Positions 873-10,416 of a DNA stretch of 10,428 nucleotides are shown here, piece after piece. The stretch is taken from the IMG/VR virus record IMGVR_UViG_2667527698_000006, one strand, 5' to 3'. Each line of letters opens with the position of its first letter. Positions within the stretch are counted from its first letter, which is position 1. The position numbers and the translations under genes were made by a program. The notes under the pieces were generated by a model, which did no database searches, was not told where the DNA came from, and worked only from the letters and a program-made list of their open reading frames with translations. Source of the stretch: a virus. Its lineage: Duplodnaviria; Heunggongvirae; Uroviricota; Caudoviricetes.

Positions 873-1235
873 ATGTTAAAGCTATTTGCAAAGTACACAT
901 CTATAGGCGTGCTGAACACACTTATACACTGGGTGGTTTTTGGTGTATGTATCTATGCCGCGCATACCAATCAGGCTATGGCAAACTTCGCAGGTTTCGT
1001 TGTGGCTGTGAGTTTTAGCTTCTTTGCGAATGCAAAATTCACATTCAAAGCATCAACTACAACGATGCGCTACATGTTATATGTCGGGTTCATGGGAACA
1101 CTGAGTGCTACTGTTGGATGGGTTGCTGATAGATGTTCACTTCCTCCAATTGTCACTCTTGTTACCTTCTCCGCCATCAGCTTGGTGTGCGGTTTCGTCT
1201 ATTCAAAGTTCATTGTCTTTAGGGATGCGAAATGA
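873..1235 (+). CDS. gtrA: GtrA, bactoprenol-linked glucose flippase (O-antigen glucosylation / serotype conversion)
   Basis: 120-aa small hydrophobic protein [25 protein letters not shown]...[10 protein letters not shown], near-identical by recollection to GtrA of P22 and Shigella flexneri serotype-converting phages. First gene after attP. Stop overlaps the gtrB start (ATGA at 1232-1235). Confidence 0.95.
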
Positions 1236-2149
1236 AGATATCTCTTGTCGTTCCTGTCTTCAATGAAGAAGAAGCGATACCAATTTTTTATAAAACGGTA
1301 CGTGAATTCGAAGAGTTGAAGCCATATGAAGTAGAAATTGTTTTCATAAATGACGGAAGCAAAGACGCTACGGAGTCAATCATTAACGCTCTGGCTGTTT
1401 CTGATCCGCTAGTTGTTCCGCTGTCATTTACACGCAACTTTGGTAAAGAACCAGCATTGTTTGCAGGGTTAGACCATACAACCGGCGATGCCGTGATTCC
1501 AATTGATGTTGACCTGCAAGACCCGATTGAGGTTATTCCTCATCTTATTGAAAAGTGGCAGGCAGGTGCTGACATGGTGCTTGCTAAACGTTCAGACCGC
1601 TCAACTGATGGACGGCTGAAACGTAAGACAGCTGAGTGGTTCTATAAATTACACAACAAAATAAGCACCCCAAAAATAGAGGAAAATGTCGGAGATTTTC
1701 GACTCATGTCTCGTGAGGTTGTGGAGAACATTAAACTATTGCCTGAGCGCAATCTTTTCATGAAAGGCATACTGAGCTGGGTTGGTGGTCAGACAGATGT
1801 CGTTGAATATGTACGCACAGAGCGTGTTGCTGGCATCTCAAAATTTAATGGCTGGAAATTATGGAATCTGGCACTGGAAGGTATCACAAGTTTTTCAACC
1901 TTTCCTCTTCGCGTATGGACTTATATAGGCTTGTTTGTTGCAAGCATTTCATTTTTATATGGTGCATGGATGATTATAGACACCATTGTCTTTGGTAACC
2001 CAGTACGCGGGTATCCCTCCATGCTTGTATCAATACTTTTCCTGGGTGGAGTGCAACTGATCGGGATTGGTGTTCTCGGTGAATATATAGGTAGAATTTA
2101 TTTAGAAACAAAATCAAGACCACGGTACTTAATTAAAAGCAGAAAATAA
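1232..2149 (+). CDS. gtrB: GtrB, bactoprenol glucosyltransferase (GT2 family)
   Basis: 305 aa. GT2 motifs [15 protein letters not shown] and DVDLQDP, with C-terminal hydrophobic helices ([42 protein letters not shown]). Translationally coupled to gtrA; conserved gtrA-gtrB synteny. Confidence 0.95.
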
Positions 2150-2161
2150 CAGGATGATCTT

Positions 2162-3427
2162 ATGAAGATATTCATAATGCGCAATTGGCACAAGATATCA
2201 ATTTTTATACTTGCATTTACTTTGATTTGGCTTAGGCGCATTGACATTTTGACAAATGCCCAGTTTTGGGCTGAGGATGCAGTTTTTTGGTATAAAGATG
2301 CATACGAACAAGGTTTTTTCAGTTCACTCATAACCCCAAGAAATGGTTATTTTCAAACAGTATCAACACTCATTGTTGGTGCGACGACATTTATTAATCC
2401 AATTTACGCACCATTATTATCAAACTTTTTTGGAATAATAATTAGAGCTATAATTATATGGTTCTTATTTACCGATAGATTTAAATTCCTAAGCACCACA
2501 TCAAAAATCTTCATCTCTGTATATTTAATTTGCATGCCCGGGCTTGATGAAGTCCAAGCCAATATAACAAATGCTCACTGGTATTTATCATTGTATGTTG
2601 CAATGATAATAATATCTGAAGAATCCAAGTCAAAATTATGGAAAGCACATGATTTATTTTTTATAGTATTATCTGGATTGAGCGGTCCATTTATTATATT
2701 CATAATTGCATCATCTGTTTTTAAATATTTACACTTATCAAAAGGAGTAATAAGCATAAGAGGTTTATACTTATTTTATACTCGACTGCCATATTTGGCA
2801 ATGATCTTGTGTGGGCTGATACAGGCAACATCAATAATTCTTACATTTAATGGAACAAGATCACATGCTCCATTAGGATTCAGTTTTGATGTTATGTCAT
2901 CTATAATATCATCTAATGTATTTCTTTTTTCATTTGTCCCTTGGAATATCGCTAATGCTGGATGGGATAATCACCTTTTATCGTACACACTATCAACTTT
3001 AGTAATTACATTATGTGTTTTCATTTATATTAAAGGAAATTGGCAAATGAAAGTGTTTGCCACCCTTCCAATACTTATTGTCGCATTTTCTATGGCAAAA
3101 CCTCAACTGGCAGATTCTGTTCCTCAACTGCCAACACTTGCAACCGGAAACGGGTCAAGGTATTTTGTAAATATTCATATTGCAATTTTTTCATTAATAT
3201 GCGTTTGTTTGTTTCAATGCATAAAGAATAAAACCTTAAAAATATTCTTTAAAATCTATGTTTCAGTCATCCTTATTGCAATGATAAAATTAAACTTTTT
3301 TATAACCCCTCTTCCTGACATGAACTGGTCTCAAGGAGCAGAATTAATAAATAAAGCAAAACATGGAGAAGCCGTCTCATTTACAGTGCTCCCTCCATGG
3401 TTAACTCTTGATTTAATAAAAAAATAA
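2162..3427 (+). CDS. Type-specific O-antigen glucosyltransferase (GtrC-position polytopic membrane protein), specificity undetermined
   Basis: 421-aa, very hydrophobic multi-helix protein immediately downstream of gtrAB, in the position where gtr clusters carry the serotype-specific transferase. The gene is visibly AT-rich compared with gtrAB and the structural genes (judged by eye, not computed), as is typical of horizontally exchanged gtr type genes. AGGA lies 8 nt before the ATG. Confidence 0.8.
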   Translation: MKIFIMRNWHKISIFILAFTLIWLRRIDILTNAQFWAEDAVFWYKDAYEQGFFSSLITPRNGYFQTVSTLIVGATTFINPIYAPLLSNFFGIIIRAIIIWFLFTDRFKFLSTTSKIFISVYLICMPGLDEVQANITNAHWYLSLYVAMIIISEESKSKLWKAHDLFFIVLSGLSGPFIIFIIASSVFKYLHLSKGVISIRGLYLFYTRLPYLAMILCGLIQATSIILTFNGTRSHAPLGFSFDVMSSIISSNVFLFSFVPWNIANAGWDNHLLSYTLSTLVITLCVFIYIKGNWQMKVFATLPILIVAFSMAKPQLADSVPQLPTLATGNGSRYFVNIHIAIFSLICVCLFQCIKNKTLKIFFKIYVSVILIAMIKLNFFITPLPDMNWSQGAELINKAKHGEAVSFTVLPPWLTLDLIKK

Positions 3428-3457
3428 AACTTCACATTAATAAATAACAATGAATCC

Positions 3458-3485
3458 GCCTCCCTACGTATTCCCGTAGGGAGGC
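3458..3485. terminator. Bidirectional intrinsic terminator between convergent gtrC and tailspike
   Basis: 11-bp perfect stem GCCTCCCTACG (3458-3468) / CGTAGGGAGGC (3475-3485) with a 6-nt loop. On the minus strand the hairpin is followed by a U-rich tract (complement of the A-rich 3421-3450). On the plus strand it is followed by a weaker UGUUUAU tract. Confidence 0.6.
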
Positions 3486-3493
3486 TGTCGTGT

Positions 3494-5209
3494 TTATAGT
3501 AGCCTGGTAATGCTAAATGCAAACGAACTGGAGATTCCTGCTCCGCTAAGCGTATTGCGCAGGGTCACCCTAAATGTATCTACGCCAATATAAGTAACAT
3601 CACAACTAACTGAATCAGGCGCAGATATAGGTGTTATCTGCACAATATAACCGCTAGCAACTGCTGCGAGCGGATGAGAAAAGCTAACCTCATACACACC
3701 TGTAGCAACCACGTTAACCGATGAAACACCAGTAGCAACGTCGATACTACCATTGGCGTTAATTTTTCCCGAGCGTGTGACTGACAATGCAGAAGCCGAT
3801 GTTGCCTTACTGGTTGTTTCTGTAAAAACACACCCAATGTCAACTACCTCGCAATTAGCTCCTGTTATCCAGTATGGTCGATCTGCACTTGGCTGATAAT
3901 CCCCTGCGCTCTGGAACGTTGTGCCGTTGAGTATGACTGTAACTTTTCCCCCACCTGAGCTTGTTACTTGAATATTAGTGTGCGTGTATCTTGCACTGCT
4001 CACGCGATGAAAATTTCCACCGTTTATAACCACAGTTACAGGGCGCGTCCCAGTATTATCTATAGCAAGGTCTGCCCCCCCGGCATTAGCCTCAAAGTAT
4101 GGGTTGTTTAATACCAAAGCGCACGAACCGTTAAGGCCATTTATGGCTAATTGCGCACCACCTGTACTGGAATCCCCCTGAGTACCATTTCCTTCACAAG
4201 TCAGGCTATTGATAGTTGTACCAGCACCCCAGCGGTCCCCGAGGATACCCCATTCACTGTTCTGACTGCACGTAAGCCTATTTGCAGTTATAGCGTTCAG
4301 TTCAGAATGATTTACGGAGTTGGTAGCACGCCAACCGATACGATTACTCTGCAAGTACACGTTCGTCATGTCGCTCGTGAGCATCGAGTCAGTGCGTAAC
4401 CCTTCCCCGTCAGGGTGGCGGCAGATAACAATGTTTTCAAGACGAGTATGTGCTTTATTCTGCACCAGCATACCGTAACTTCCGGGATTCCCTTTCAGCG
4501 TCATGTTGCCGATGTAGTCATATGCAGCCAATCTCTGACTGTTAAACGCTGCGTCACCTAGCATTTTTACGTTAAAATCAGTAGCTCTACATTCCAGTAT
4601 TGTCTCAGCCATGTTCTCGCCTGAGTAAAAACAGCGGACACCCGGAGCACCTACAAAGTCGGCAGGGTAATCATCATAATTAAGTACCAGAGGAGTGGTA
4701 ACATCATACACCCCTTGCTTTATTTTTAATGTTCCACCGAAAGGCCACGATGTAAGCGGGTCTTGATATATTTCATTTTTTATTGCAAATAGCTCATCTT
4801 GAAGATTTTTCCCGCTATTAGTGCCAATGTAAGTAGCCCCTTCATCAGATTGAAGTAACTGCAGAAGCTGTTCAGGGTCATACTTCAGCAAATTCGGAAA
4901 ATAGAACTGTTGCGAACCATACGCATCATATACAGCCATTGAATGGCCTTGCTCAGTTACAAATTTGGCAATCTGCCCGTTATATACCGGATAACCAGCA
5001 GCGTTAATGATGATTGGTTGAGAAACAGGAACGTGATAACCATCTTCGTTCTCCACATAAACCTGAATCTGGTTTTCAGGATTTACAGGGTCAGTGTCAA
5101 TTTTACCAATATAAATTTTACCATTGGCTACGGCTTTAAAAGAACGAGCCATAGTGAATAGTTGCGAAGGCATGCTTACCACAACATTGGCATTTATTGA
5201 ATCTGTCAT
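3494..5209 (-). CDS. Tailspike protein: P22 gp9-family N-terminal head-binding domain fused to a divergent C-terminal receptor-binding/depolymerase domain
   Basis: I place the start at ATG 5209 ([57 protein letters not shown]...), preceded by GAGA, not at the 15-codon-longer ORF-track start. The first ~115 aa closely match my recollection of the head-binding domain of HK620/Sf6/P22 tailspikes. The remainder is rich in Gly/Asn/Thr/Ser with repeated short beta-strand-like segments ([14 protein letters not shown]), consistent with a beta-helix, but not recognisable to me as the P22, Sf6 or HK620 domain. Confidence 0.9.
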
Positions 5210-5260
5210 TTTAATTTCTCTATATGTTAAGCAAGCAATATTCATTGCTAGCATGTTTTT

Positions 5261-5268
5261 TGTATAAT
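5261..5268 (+). promoter_or_regulatory. Candidate extended -10 promoter element (TGTATAAT) for the HNH endonuclease gene
   Basis: TGnTATAAT consensus at 5261-5268. A weak -35-like TTCATT at 5241-5246 gives a 16-nt spacer. AAGGTGG ribosome-binding site at 5285-5291, 5 nt before ATG 5297. Confidence 0.4.
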
Positions 5269-5296
5269 GAGTGAACTTTATTTAAAGGTGGTTAAC

Positions 5297-5806
5297 ATGA
5301 ACTGGAACGAAGTATTCGTATTAAAAGACGATGGACTCCTGTACTGGAGTGACCAATATCTCTCAAGACCCAAAATGTTCAATATCTCTAAAGAAAAGCC
5401 TGCAGGACATATATTCAAGGACAAGAACAGGAAAACATCTTATATAATTATCAGGTATCAAGATAAAATATACGCCGCTCATAGGATAATATGGGAAATG
5501 TTTTATGGTGAAATCCCTTCAGGAATGCAAATTGACCATAAAGATGGTAATGGGTTAAATAATTCAATAGACAACCTGCGTCTAGTTAGTCTCGGTGAAA
5601 ACCTAAAAAACAAATCTAAATACACAAACAATACATCTGGGTGCGCAGGTGTTTCATGGCATAAGACCCATAAAAAGTGGGTGGCATATATTAGCGACGC
5701 AGGGAAGCGCATTAATCTCGGATACTTTAAGAGTCTCGATGATGCAATTGCTGTAAGGCGTGAGGCTGAAAAGACCTATGGTTATCATGAGAATCATGGT
5801 AGGTGA
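5297..5806 (+). CDS. HNH endonuclease with C-terminal AP2 DNA-binding domain (putative free-standing homing endonuclease)
   Basis: HNH_3-type motif AAHRIIWEMFYGEIPSGMQIDHKDGNGLNNSIDNLRLVSLGEN (His codon 5537-5539, terminal Asn 5600-5602), followed by an AP2-like module SGCAGVSWHKTHKKWVAYISDAGKRINLGYFKSLDDAIAVRREAEKTYG. I prefer the start at ATG 5297, which has a good RBS, over ORF-track 5267, which overlaps the -10 element. The gene is AT-rich. Confidence 0.8.
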   Translation: MNWNEVFVLKDDGLLYWSDQYLSRPKMFNISKEKPAGHIFKDKNRKTSYIIIRYQDKIYAAHRIIWEMFYGEIPSGMQIDHKDGNGLNNSIDNLRLVSLGENLKNKSKYTNNTSGCAGVSWHKTHKKWVAYISDAGKRINLGYFKSLDDAIAVRREAEKTYGYHENHGR

Positions 5807-5937
5807 TATCTGACATTTCATTGCTCCAGACGAATGATATGATGCAACCATGATGTGATTGCATACCGAAATGGTACTATTGAGTATTTATCCAGTAGGT
5901 TACGATGCCATTCCACCCAACTGGTGAGGCATCAAGG

Positions 5938-6198
5938 ATGTACAGCAAATACGACGAGGCGCAGTTTCACTTGAGACTTCCGCATGAACTCCACGCGAAA
6001 ATTAAACAGCGTGCGAAGATGAATAACAGGTCGCTGAACTCAGAGATAATTGCAGCGATTGAAGAATCACTGGATAAACAAAACTCTGCATCAGTTTACA
6101 TTGACGATGCAGAGCGTATGGCAGAACAACAATCCGATATGGTTAAGAAAATTGTCTTTGATACGCTCAAAGAGCTATATAAAAAAGACAGCAGCTAA
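5938..6198 (+). CDS. mnt: Mnt-like ribbon-helix-helix repressor (Arc/MetJ superfamily) with C-terminal coiled-coil tetramerisation domain
   Basis: 86 aa. N-terminal RHH region AQFHLRLPHELHAKIKQRAKMNNRSLNSEIIAAIEESL. The C-terminal DDAERMAEQQSDMVKKIVFDTLKELYKK closely resembles my recollection of P22 Mnt (...DAERLADEQSELVKKMVFDTLKDLYKK). I prefer the start at ATG 5938, which has GGTGAGG 8 nt upstream, over ORF-track 5905. Orientation and position (convergent with gene 16, divergent from tailspike) match P22 immI synteny. Confidence 0.85.
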   Translation: MYSKYDEAQFHLRLPHELHAKIKQRAKMNNRSLNSEIIAAIEESLDKQNSASVYIDDAERMAEQQSDMVKKIVFDTLKELYKKDSS

Positions 6199-6287
6199 CC
6201 ATCAGTTACGGAGGATTTATGCAAAGAGATATGCTGAATATTGCGTTCTACATATTTGGTTTTTGCACGTTCCTGGTGTTTGCGAAG

Positions 6288-8285
6288 CTATTCTGACAAC
6301 GCATCAGACTTGGCACCCTGAGTCAGGGCGTTAATGGCCTTTTGCGCCTGCTGCATGGCTTTCTCAAACGCTGTTGATCCGCGTGGGGTGTTTGCCATTC
6401 GGAGCATTGCATTTCTGAATGGTTCGCTCTCATAGGCGCGAGTAAGAAGTCCGTAGCTTACTGCTGCGCCAGTTGTCGCCGGGTTCATTGCCGTCCCATA
6501 CCCGATAATGAACGGGATGGTTTGCTGCCCTGTTGGTGTTGTTACTGCCGCTTTTGCTGCCTGCTGAGTGGACTGAAGGTAATTTTTCAATCCTTTCAGA
6601 TAAGCAGCGTCCTGCCCCTTAAATGTGATGCCAGTCTGGTTTTGCAGGATGTTAAGCTGCCGAAGGAACTGGTCAGGGGATCCGCCAGATTTCTCCATCG
6701 CCTTTCCAATGATGCCATTGCGCATTTGCACCCTGCCAACACGACCAACTGAGTTATACAGCGTCTTAATTTCCGATTTGTTCTTGCTGAATAGCATGTT
6801 GTTGACAACTTCCGGCGTCAGGTCGCCTTTCATGAGAACATTCTTCAGCCTGGTATTCTTTAGTTTCGCCGCTTCGTCAGCGTAGACGGCATTGGCCTGC
6901 TGATATTTACGGAGAGTATCGTTGCCAAGATTCTGACCAATGGCACCATTGATATCGTCGGTCATCGCCTTGTAAACGCGCTGAATGGCAGCATCGGAAC
7001 GGTTTGGTAACACTGGTCGCTCACCCTTCACGTCCATTCTGAACTGACTGCGCAGGTCGCTTAATTGCTTCAAATCCAGATTTACCGGACCTTCAGGGCC
7101 AGCATTGCGAACAAGCTCATCACGATATGACTGAAGTTTTGAAATTGTCTCGTTATCAGCCACCTTACCAAGCTTCTGCAGGTTAGATATTTCTGTATCA
7201 ATCTGCTGAATTGCTCGCGCAGGCTGAATGTTTACTCCAGCCATAGCATTCTGAACCTGCTCCAGTCGATTACCGGCGGCACGACGAATTCCTGATGTTT
7301 TCGCTTTAAGGCTGTCAATAACAACCGCTGGATCATACTCCCCGAATTTATCAGCAAATCTCTGCACCAACTGGCTTCTCGCTTCCTGTTGCGTTGCTCT
7401 CATTCCGCTTGTTCCAGCCAGAGGGATATTTTCTGCTGTAGTCTGCGCCATTTTTCCGACGCGGGAAGTTGGTTGTAACAGGTCTGTGGTGTGCAGAGGA
7501 ACTCCTTCACGCTCTGCAAATCTGATAGCCTGCTGCGCTTCTGGCGCGATAGCGCCACGAACGCCACGATAAGCAGCACCTAATCCACGTCCGGCAGCGT
7601 TAATAGCACCGCCAGCAAGTACACCAACGCCTAAATCGGTGGCGAGTGCTTCCGCATCATCTTTCGCACTATTTGCAGCAAGTGATCCAACTGCGTTTTC
7701 AGCGAGAAGGCGAGTTGCCCCCTGAGCAATTCGACCAGCAAGTGTTGGTGCCTGTGCTGCCGCTCTCTCAACGCCAGCAGGAGTGAGGTAAGGCAATGCT
7801 TCAGCAAATACCCTTCCCTCTGTCGTTTGTGGAGTCAGCGCACCTTGCTGAAGGCCAAAGTCCTGCTCTAATCCCTGCGTTGTTACTCGTGGCGCTGGTT
7901 GATATGTCCCATCGCCAATGCCGAGTTTACCGCCAGCCCAAGCCGCCGCGCTCGTTACAGCATCGGCAACTGATGCAGGTATATTTGCCACGTTCACGCC
8001 AGCCTGCACCAGTCCGCGACCAGTCTCTTTTACTGCTTCGCCAAGATCAGACATAAATCCACTTTGCTGTGGTTGTTGCTGTGCTACTGGTTGTTGTGTC
8101 TCCACTGGCTGCACAGATGGCAATGGATAGGCAGCATAGAAAGCTTGCTTAGCCTGCTCTGCATTTTCTCCGGCTTGCGGGGCCACGACTTCATTGAAGT
8201 ATTGCTCCTGAGCCTGCGCTTTTTGTTCTGGTGCTAACGCCTGATACTGTGGAGAGGCGATAACATCTTTCCATGCTTTAGCCAT
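6288..8285 (-). CDS. Ejection (DNA-injection) protein, P22 gp16-like
   Basis: 665 aa, Ala/Gln/Gly-rich, last gene of a 7-20-16 collinear block upstream of the immI/tailspike region, as in P22. Start ATG (8285-8283) overlaps the stop of the preceding gene (TAATG), indicating translational coupling. Confidence 0.8.
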   Translation of the reverse strand: MAKAWKDVIASPQYQALAPEQKAQAQEQYFNEVVAPQAGENAEQAKQAFYAAYPLPSVQPVETQQPVAQQQPQQSGFMSDLGEAVKETGRGLVQAGVNVANIPASVADAVTSAAAWAGGKLGIGDGTYQPAPRVTTQGLEQDFGLQQGALTPQTTEGRVFAEALPYLTPAGVERAAAQAPTLAGRIAQGATRLLAENAVGSLAANSAKDDAEALATDLGVGVLAGGAINAAGRGLGAAYRGVRGAIAPEAQQAIRFAEREGVPLHTTDLLQPTSRVGKMAQTTAENIPLAGTSGMRATQQEARSQLVQRFADKFGEYDPAVVIDSLKAKTSGIRRAAGNRLEQVQNAMAGVNIQPARAIQQIDTEISNLQKLGKVADNETISKLQSYRDELVRNAGPEGPVNLDLKQLSDLRSQFRMDVKGERPVLPNRSDAAIQRVYKAMTDDINGAIGQNLGNDTLRKYQQANAVYADEAAKLKNTRLKNVLMKGDLTPEVVNNMLFSKNKSEIKTLYNSVGRVGRVQMRNGIIGKAMEKSGGSPDQFLRQLNILQNQTGITFKGQDAAYLKGLKNYLQSTQQAAKAAVTTPTGQQTIPFIIGYGTAMNPATTGAAVSYGLLTRAYESEPFRNAMLRMANTPRGSTAFEKAMQQAQKAINALTQGAKSDALSE

Positions 8286-9714
8286 TAATCACCCCATAGT
8301 GAAGAAAAGTTACTGCTGGCTGCTGGCTGTGATACCTGTGCAGGTTGAGATTGCTTCCGCTGAGATTTACCAACATTAACGTTATATTGTTGGTTGTAAT
8401 TGTTGGTGTATTCCTGAATCTCACGAATCGACTGCTGCATAGCCTCCGGGCTTGAATAGTCAACCTGCGGCATCCCCTGAAAATACATCTTCGCTTCTGC
8501 AACGGTGTTAATACCACTGGCACCCATGTCCCTTGCTGCCGCCACACCCTGATTCTGCATTCTGCCCTGAATACGTTGTGCTGAGTTATATAACTGGCGC
8601 TGCTCTTTTCCCGTTAATCGGCTGCGAACATCAGCACCAATTGCTGGATTACCTGCACCACCTGTCATTCCTGTCATGAAATCGAGAGCAGAAGCGTCTG
8701 CATTTGCGATCGCGTCGATATCCTTCTTCATGGCATAGTTTTGTGCTGATGCAGACGATGTTGCAGGCGCAGCGATTGAACTGGCAGGGACGCGAACCAT
8801 ATTCCCATCGTTGTCGATGCCTTCGTAGAACGCATTAGCCCCAGCGCCATGAAGCTTCCCGCCTACCGTTACAGTTCTGCCATCTGATAACTGAACTGTA
8901 CGCTCATCATTCCCAGCGATTCCTCTTGTTGACGCTCGCTGCATTGCCAAATCCTGACCTCGTCGCGCAGTAGAAGCAGATAAGTCCTGACCGCGCATCG
9001 TGATGTTCTGGCCTCGTGCTGTTAGCGCCTCGCCAGCCTGATTGCTGCGGATTGTCTCTGCAAGTTTCCCGCGATCAATCTCACGACCAGCCATCTTGTC
9101 CTGAACATTGAAGTAATCAATTGGACCAAGAGCAGCCATTCCAAGGTGATCAACAAACTCACCAAATCCTGAAGGGTTCTGCTGATACATCTGAGCAACG
9201 TTATTAGGGTCAACACCGACGCGCGCCAGCTCATTGGCGTTGTTTTGCAGCCATGATTGCATTGCTTCTGGAGAAGATGACGCAAGACGTGCGCCAGCCG
9301 CTAATGTACCGATAGAATTACGCTGGTCTTCATCAATGAATCCCATGCCTTTACGAACGGATTCAATCTGGTCTGGATATTGAGTAGCCAACTGACGCAA
9401 AGCACCGCGATCACCAGAAGCATAAGCATTAGCGTATGCCTGCTGAAATTCTTTCTGCCGCTGAGCCTGCTTTTCCTGCTGAAACACCCCCGCAATACCT
9501 GAAAGGCCTTGCAAAGCAGTCAGCCCAACATTGTTAGCGCCTGAACGCTCAATATCATTGTTCTGCCTGATAAGCTGAAGNNNNNNNNNNNNNNNNNNNN
9601 NNNNNNNNNNNNNNNNNNNNNNNNNNNNNNNNNNNNNNNNNNNNNNNNNNNNNNNNNNNNNNNNNNNNNNNNNNNNNNNNNNNNNNNNNNATTTGATCCT
9701 TGCCAAGTAGCCAT
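8285..9714 (-). CDS. Ejection protein, P22 gp20-like; coding sequence interrupted by a 110-nt N run, true length and frame across the gap unknown
   Basis: Probable start ATG at 9714 (MATWQGSN...), with GGGG RBS 5 nt upstream and 9 nt after the gp7 stop. Downstream of the gap the long open frame (…[20 protein letters not shown]… to stop at 8285-8287) continues. The ORF-track N-terminus MGRWHW... lies inside gene 7 in another frame and is an artefact of reading through N. Confidence 0.75.
9581..9690. other. Assembly/scaffold gap (110 N)
   Basis: Uninterrupted run of n characters. Confidence 0.99.
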
Positions 9715-9723
9715 GATTACCCC

Positions 9724-10416
9724 TTAAAACAACGAGCCAAGCAATCCGATACCAGCACCAATGCCAGCGCCCCAAGGTGTTGATGTTCCCAAAAGGCTGG
9801 CAAGACCTGCACCGGCAATCGCACCAGACGTTCCGCCACTAATTGCTGTCTGAAGACTTGATGGTTTGTTGGCATTAGCAGCGGCAAGAGCTGCGCTTTG
9901 CTGTGCAATGCTGCTCATGTTGTTGGCGTACGTCTGCCCGGCGTTTGCCTGACCTTGCAGCGCACCAAGCCCAACGTTTGCCAGATTGTTGTAATTGCTC
10001 ATCTGGTTTGATAACCAAGACTGACCGAGTGTCGGCGCGATCGTAGCCAGTTGATTGCTTGTGGCTGTCGAACCAAGTCCACCCGTCGCCTCCGCAGCAG
10101 CAAGACTCTGGTAACGCGCCTGACCTGCAAGGTCTTTATACTGCTGAGAGTTGTAATACTGATTAAGTGCCTGCCCCTGACCTTCTAAACTGGAAAGATT
10201 CTGCAACTGGTTAACATACTGCTCCGCAAGAGGCGTGAACGGAGCAAGGTTTTTCATGATCGTCTGCCACTGCTGATTTTGCAGGTCTGCTGCATACTTC
10301 TGAGCTTCTGCGGCATACTTTGCGCTTTTATCAGAACTTCCACCTTTCCCACCCTTTTCAGGGCAATAAGGTTCCTCGCCGCGCAGTTTTCTGCCCAGCT
10401 TAAATGCATATAACAT
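9724..10416 (-). CDS. Ejection protein, P22 gp7-like
   Basis: 230 aa (P22 gp7 is about 229 aa by recollection), MLYAFKLGRKLRGEEPYCPEKGGKGG... with a Gly/Ala-rich hydrophobic C-terminus. GGAG RBS 7 nt upstream of ATG 10416. First gene of the 7-20-16 block. Confidence 0.8.
   Translation of the reverse strand: MLYAFKLGRKLRGEEPYCPEKGGKGGSSDKSAKYAAEAQKYAADLQNQQWQTIMKNLAPFTPLAEQYVNQLQNLSSLEGQGQALNQYYNSQQYKDLAGQARYQSLAAAEATGGLGSTATSNQLATIAPTLGQSWLSNQMSNYNNLANVGLGALQGQANAGQTYANNMSSIAQQSAALAAANANKPSSLQTAISGGTSGAIAGAGLASLLGTSTPWGAGIGAGIGLLGSLF

Follow-up and report, generated by a model that had tools for sequence, protein, structure and literature searches.

What does the tailspike encoded in a 10,428-nucleotide stretch of caudoviricete DNA (IMG/VR virus record IMGVR_UViG_2667527698_000006; hereafter the window) recognise on the bacterial surface, and does it cut what it binds? 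The gene occupies 3494..5209 on the minus strand (571 codons plus stop), within an open reading frame (ORF) at 3494..5254 whose ATG at 5209 gives a 571-amino-acid (aa) product, as read from the ORF list and translation. A first-pass annotation had divided this protein into a P22-family attachment module and a receptor-binding domain that it could not place, and for the latter had suggested a glycanase of new or unassigned polysaccharide specificity. We put at roughly 75% the probability that the protein is the tailspike of the Shigella flexneri serotype-converting phage SfX, in which a P22-type attachment domain is joined to a beta-helix module that cuts O-antigen. The identity of the gene, its domain layout, the sharing of its receptor module, the predicted fold and the conserved residues are established here; the dependence on O-antigen comes from papers on related phages.

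The phage itself could be named from a record already public. Window positions 2156-3883 are 100% identical over 1728 nucleotides (nt) to GenBank L05001.1, a 1993 entry for the bacteriophage SfX glucosyl transferase gene, which spans all of gtrX and, unannotated, the final 390 nt of the gene for the tailspike. Given this identity, the P22-like gene set (in the order gp7, gp20, gp16, mnt, tailspike, gtrX/B/A) and the longer contigs with the identical tailspike, which also encode P22-type coat, tail and needle proteins, the window is SfX or a near-identical SfX-type prophage. SfX is represented by 1.7 kb only in the phage collection searched, and the remainder of the tailspike is presumably identical to that of the original isolate. 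Published work describes SfX as short-tailed, with one tailspike protein, and cites its prophage in S. flexneri 2002017 as NC_017328 (PMC3851460). NCBI lists the identical 571-aa protein, from 33 contigs, under the name 'phage head-binding domain-containing protein [Shigella flexneri]', and the identical gene lies in matching P22-like surroundings in the 24 contigs examined.

The protein falls into two parts with different histories. Residues 1-115 (4865..5209, minus strand) form the head-binding domain that attaches the spike to the virion; Pfam PF09008 (Head_binding) matches residues 4-114 (E 1.2e-62), BLASTP gives 86% identity to the Sf6 tailspike over residues 1-121, and the region shares ~91% DNA identity with HK620. 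Similarity to HK620 and Sf6 at the DNA level ends at nt 346 of the gene, that is, at residue 115, and in a protein alignment with Sf6, HK620 and Sf101 the break falls directly after a KYDP(E/D)Q hinge. A PF09008 domain ending at the YDP(D/E)Q hinge, in a gene downstream of gp7, gp20 and gp16 homologues within a P22-like late region, places the protein in the P22 (Lederbergvirus-type) family. Beyond the hinge this kinship stops: PDB sequence matches to P22, Sf6 and related tailspikes cover residues 1-127 only, BLASTP with residues 116-571 as the query gave no match below E = 1 to the tailspikes of Sf6 and HK620, and a Pfam and NCBIfam search matched no family in the receptor domain (the Pfam entry PF27114 is recorded for distant relatives). 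The first-pass annotation thus read the layout well: its attachment module, its boundary at ~4864 (residue 116 is codon 4862-4864, a difference of one base), its remark that the rest is unlike P22, Sf6 and HK620, and its remark that the protein is shorter (571 aa vs 623 in Sf6, 710 in HK620 and 666-667 residues in the P22-type PDB chains) all hold. The G+C content is 40% in the head-binding part and 46% in the receptor domain.

Where the first-pass annotation left the receptor domain without a place, our searches supplied one. Besides the L05001.1 identity, translated searches of 50,697 phage records found high-identity matches in three phages only, namely SfX, Sf101 (73.5%) and Sf11 (gp13, 71.9%), followed by more distant matches (27-34%) in Aeromonas and Pseudomonas phages. 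The domain matches phrog_17420 over its residues 1-455 (E 6e-225) and so belongs to the SfX/Sf101/Sf11 family. In a collection of 5.8 billion proteins, the closest proteins outside its own cluster are 83% identical over the receptor domain; an exhaustive HMMER scan at E <= 0.001 extended the family to 352 clusters (50% identity), and a related receptor domain is present in 2 of 5,426 complete E. coli genomes. It occurs behind three different N-terminal adaptors, PF09008 (P22-type), PF18668 (Sf11-type) and PF18668 with PF03906 (the T7 tail-fibre N-terminus), which is direct evidence for modular exchange and agrees with the swap of modules near residue 115 that had been proposed. Many members of the tailspike's own 90% cluster are fragments, and the cluster's representative, a truncated copy of 333 residues, comes from a 4.53-Mb chromosome. 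We mention this because the Sf101 paper describes the C-terminal part of the Sf101 tailspike as having 'very limited homology' to SfX (PMC4159516), contrary to the 73.5% identity that we find; in view of the truncated representative and the many fragments, its authors may have compared their protein with a truncated SfX annotation.

To examine the fold, we modelled residues 116-571 with AlphaFold2 as a monomer, using 29 aligned relatives (mean predicted local distance difference test score, pLDDT, 87.2; predicted template modelling score, pTM, 0.76). The model has a short, partly helical neck (residues 116-157, 4739..4864, minus strand) that begins the receptor module, its short predicted helices having pLDDT 54-84 and the similarity to Sf11 gp13 beginning at residue 121. 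There follow regular three-strand rungs at residues ~158-460 (3830..4738, minus strand) and an all-beta C-terminal domain at residues ~461-571 (3497..3829, minus strand). The receptor domain is therefore predicted to be a right-handed parallel beta-helix carrying a small beta-strand domain, a helix that the first-pass annotation had anticipated and that both the AlphaFold2 model and the Foldseek comparison predict. Structural neighbours include AlgE4, RbmB and PL6 enzymes, and a fold search of BFVD returned no functionally characterised relative. The best PDB sequence match, chain G of 9OCC (Sf11 gp13), was considered as a solved close relative and set aside because only residues 4-59 are experimentally built; for the receptor part of gp13 the authors fitted an AlphaFold model and assumed activity, without an assay (PMC12724387).

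Does this fold make the protein a divergent offshoot of the Sf6 endorhamnosidase lineage, with the same Rha-alpha-1,3-Rha (Rha, rhamnose) bond as its target and, like Sf6, an active site between subunits? We consider this unlikely, if deserving of serious weight. The Sf6 tailspike is the top Foldseek match in the PDB (E 2e-7), the host polysaccharide is identical, the authors of the Sf11 study call gp13 'Sf6-like' (PMC12724387), and hhalign, run with a domain-only family alignment, aligns our family profile with the Sf6 receptor domain at 86% probability. That last match is confined to the N-terminal third of the helix, and neither sequence nor profile similarity was found across the catalytic part of the beta-helix, around Sf6 Glu366/Asp399. 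For the HK620-type endo-N-acetylglucosaminidase the corresponding hhalign probability is 7.7%, and the receptor domain showed the sequence features of neither that enzyme nor the P22-type endorhamnosidase.

A candidate active site emerged from conservation. We aligned 154 family members and took figures from the 87 that are <45% identical to the query. E339 (4193-4195), E373 (4091-4093) and D380 (4070-4072), together spanning 4070..4195 on the minus strand, are kept in 91%, 97% and 98% of these distant members, respectively, and are invariant in 29 relatives; N305, Y371, N375, R402 and Y438 are kept in 94-99%, and R444 in 87%. These residues lie in strongly conserved motifs, namely YFEANxGxAD, FxR, YxPSxxRP and one starting NA(I/L), which persist down to 24% overall identity. 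In the AlphaFold2 model the third strand ends with E339 on one rung and with E373 on the next, and D380 follows seven residues later, in the next first strand; all three fall in blocks of pLDDT ~97. The retention of these carboxylates in 91-98% of distant members suggests a glycoside hydrolase, and we infer that they may form a centre of stacked carboxylates analogous to those of P22, HK620, Sf6 and GH28 enzymes. By linear position, with the initiator Met discounted, E339 and E373 fall near D339 and E372 of HK620; no alignment supports this pairing, and we treated it as coincidence.

The same conservation bears on whether the domain could instead be an O-antigen-binding adhesin without catalysis, in which the acidic residues serve sugar binding or folding. 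We regard this as improbable, because three carboxylates together with Asn, Tyr and Arg residues are kept at >90% among proteins only 24-35% identical, from phages of unrelated hosts (Aeromonas, Pseudomonas), and such conservation is typical of a catalytic centre, not of a site that binds varying glycans. Those P22-family tailspikes of O-antigen phages that have been characterised are, moreover, enzymes. As to the chemistry, lyases and epimerases require, by established carbohydrate chemistry, a uronic-acid substrate. The S. flexneri O-unit consists of three rhamnoses and N-acetylglucosamine (GlcNAc; PMC4159516) and holds no uronic acid, so a lyase or epimerase mechanism would not apply to the presumed substrate.

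The polysaccharide was assigned from the behaviour of SfX and its two closest relatives. SfX lysogenised a serotype Y strain and 0/18 serotype 1a strains (one constructed SfI lysogen and 17 isolates), a failure that its authors attributed to a modified O-antigen receptor (PMC3306764). Sf101 plates on serotypes Y, 1a, 1b and 3b and not on 2a, 2b, 3a, 4a, 4b, 5a, 7a or X (PMC4159516). Sf11 requires full-length lipopolysaccharide (LPS), since it does not plate on waaC, waaG or waaL mutants, and it plates normally without enterobacterial common antigen (ECA; wecC and wecD mutants), OmpA, OmpC or OmpF (PMC12724387). From these host-range and LPS-mutant data we conclude, by analogy and with fair confidence, that the target is the Y-type S. 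flexneri O-antigen, with exclusion depending on its modification. The proposal of a new polysaccharide target accordingly gives way to a familiar one. A hydrolase aimed at another surface glycan (ECA or another envelope polysaccharide), for which the O-antigen would matter only indirectly, is very improbable: the LPS-truncation phenotypes of Sf11 are indeed genetic and not biochemical, and the structural neighbours AlgE4, RbmB and the PL6 lyases act on uronic-acid polymers, with ECA containing a uronic acid, but Sf11 plates normally on the ECA-less mutants, the infection patterns of SfX and Sf101 track O-antigen serotype, and the gene adjoins an O-antigen-modifying operon, the usual arrangement in O-antigen-specific temperate phages.

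Within the receptor domain, 30-residue windows reveal an uneven pattern of identity. Against the nearest S. flexneri and E. coli relatives (P0001 and P0008), identity across residues 331-450 is 90-100%, and residues 181-300, which cover the first helix rungs, are 50-73% identical to every relative examined. Because serotype 1a separates Sf101 from SfX, this variable segment is a candidate for the part that could set tolerance to O-antigen modifications.

Taken together, the SfX tailspike would work as follows. Residues 1-115 would fix the tailspike trimer to the virion and, through the KYDP(E/D)Q hinge, hold a receptor module common to podophage Sf101 and siphophage Sf11, a homologue, gp13, being trimeric on the Sf11 virion (PMC12724387). 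The module would bind unmodified O-antigen of the serotype Y type and most likely cut it hydrolytically, letting the virion move down to the outer membrane, with E339, E373 and D380, carboxylates invariant in the family and placed on neighbouring rungs, as the likely catalytic residues. Once the phage has lysogenised its host, the gtrA-gtrB-gtrX operon next to the tailspike gene glucosylates the O-antigen and would thereby be expected to spoil the receptor for the same tailspike. Hydrolysis, the catalytic residues and this block by GtrX are steps that we infer.

Several points weigh against this account. The literature searched held no cleavage assay for any member of the receptor-domain family and no enzymology of the SfX or Sf101 tailspike, and hydrolysis by gp13 is an assumption of the Sf11 paper (PMC12724387). 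The deposited Sf11 gp13 model consists of residues 4-59, leaving the receptor domain without an experimental structure. The putative clustering of E339, E373 and D380 is judged from strand positions in a monomer model, and the site may lie within or between subunits. Finally, the literature examined does not document that cells of serotype X resist adsorption by the SfX tailspike. The first-pass annotation had held that a high-identity match to a tailspike of known specificity would overturn its proposal; such a match exists as far as the receptor polysaccharide goes and does not for the cleaved bond, and its view that no enzymatic specificity is assigned to this domain agrees with the literature searched.

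What, then, is left to find at this locus? Gene, phage, domain family and likely receptor are all public already, and biochemistry is the gap. Tentatively, and as a proposal that we would sooner expect to fail than to hold, the SfX/Sf101/Sf11 domain could be a second, independently evolved enzyme class acting on S. flexneri O-antigen, cutting another bond (e.g. GlcNAc-beta-1,2-Rha or another rhamnosidic bond) or working in another geometry (e.g. an intra-subunit E339/E373/D380 site), with residues 181-300 setting the tolerated modifications. Were this so, the domain would serve as a new reagent for typing S. flexneri or producing oligosaccharides; the Sf6 tailspike already finds use as an S. 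flexneri sensor (PMC6116271). Tailspike receptor domains decide which serotypes are open to a phage, and the domain common to SfX, Sf101 and Sf11 is a second kind specific to S. flexneri, found on podophage, siphophage and T7-type adaptors; its enzymology would show whether Shigella phages cut the same O-antigen in more than one way.

The genes around the tailspike complete the picture of a P22-like converting phage. The gtrA-gtrB-gtrX O-antigen glucosylation operon (873..3427, plus strand) comprises gtrA (873-1235; Pfam GtrA_DPMS_TM), gtrB (1232-2149; Pfam Glycos_transf_2) and gtrX (2162-3427; 100% identical to the SfX glucosyl transferase of L05001.1). gtrX and the tailspike gene converge, and the GC-rich hairpin that separates their stop codons (3458..3485; 11-bp stem with 8 G-C pairs, T-rich tail on the plus strand) is likely a terminator. 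The G+C content of gtrX is 32%, vs 42% in gtrA and gtrB and the 46% and 40% of the tailspike receptor and head-binding parts, a composition step that points to separate origins of the neighbouring modules. In contig L005, which has the identical tailspike, a 373-aa gene (6209-7330) replaces the 421-aa gtrX and the gap after the tailspike stop is longer; this gene may be a variant or truncated serotype-specific glucosyltransferase.

On the other side of the tailspike lie an Mnt-type repressor gene (5905-6198) and, on the minus strand, homologues of P22 gp16 (6288-8285), gp20 (8285-9775) and gp7 (9724-10416), the neighbouring ORFs matching Pfam P22_gp7 and Inj_translocase. The interval from the start of the tailspike gene to mnt, a place occupied in P22 by arc and ant, encodes a 179-aa HNH_3 and AP2-like protein of homing-endonuclease type (5267-5806, plus strand); its nearest phage homologues are <50% identical, the best ones listed all come from non-P22-like phages, and the gene is broken by an IS1 fragment in related contig L004. 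A patch of ~110 nt in the gp20 homologue (9580-9691; local G+C ~37%) is unaligned in contig L007, which is 100% identical elsewhere, and the called gp20 homologues range from 419 to 475 aa among related contigs.

At the other edge of the window, bases 1-58 match, at 100% identity, the end of IS600 (IS3 family), an element present in 2,877/5,426 E. coli genomes, and the integrase ORF at 59-523 is reduced to its C-terminal 154 residues (Pfam positions 57-171 of 172). An IS600 insertion has therefore cut the integrase of the phage, and the copy in the window is probably a defective prophage. What remains of the integrase sits immediately upstream of gtrA, ~350 nt away, as in the int-attP-gtrA order of the circular phage genome; an integrated prophage would be expected to show another order at its ends, and the arrangement is not readily reconciled with a chromosomal copy disrupted by an insertion sequence. 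No tRNA gene was detected in the window.

Set against known systems, the receptor domain is 11-14% identical to the pectin-lyase-fold phage depolymerases of Geobacillus virus E2 (ORF18, 7CHU), Acinetobacter phage AS12 (gp42, 6EU4) and CBA120 (TSP2, 5W6P), whose substrates are different or unknown. The Sf6 tailspike endorhamnosidase (PDB 2VBK, 2VBM) has an 86% identical head-binding domain, the same host species and polysaccharide, a beta-helix architecture and weak profile similarity in the helix cap. Sf11 gp13 (9OCC) shares the receptor domain itself, residues 121-570 of our protein aligning with gp13 135-584 at ~72% identity, and differs in its N-terminal adaptor, which consists of PF18668-type helices docking on the siphophage distal tail protein (PMC12724387). 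The Sf101 tail protein (YP_009153089.1, 580 aa), from a phage that is likewise a temperate, P22-like, O-antigen-converting phage of S. flexneri, has the same two-module architecture and is 77% identical to ours from end to end and 73.5% identical within the receptor domain. The two proteins differ in the neck, where Sf101 has a tandem 10-residue duplication (KNLQEELFAI twice, residues ~133-155) relative to the SfX-type protein, and in residues 181-300, where 30-residue windows are 57-73% identical; the phages differ in host range, Sf101 plating on serotype 1a and SfX failing to infect 1a strains, and in their converting genes, Sf101 having an O-acetyltransferase in place of gtrABX. With SfX itself, morphology class (short-tailed, P22-like) and gene order agree with the published description (PMC3851460), and its tailspike is an ordinary module of a known kind that reveals no new kind of system.
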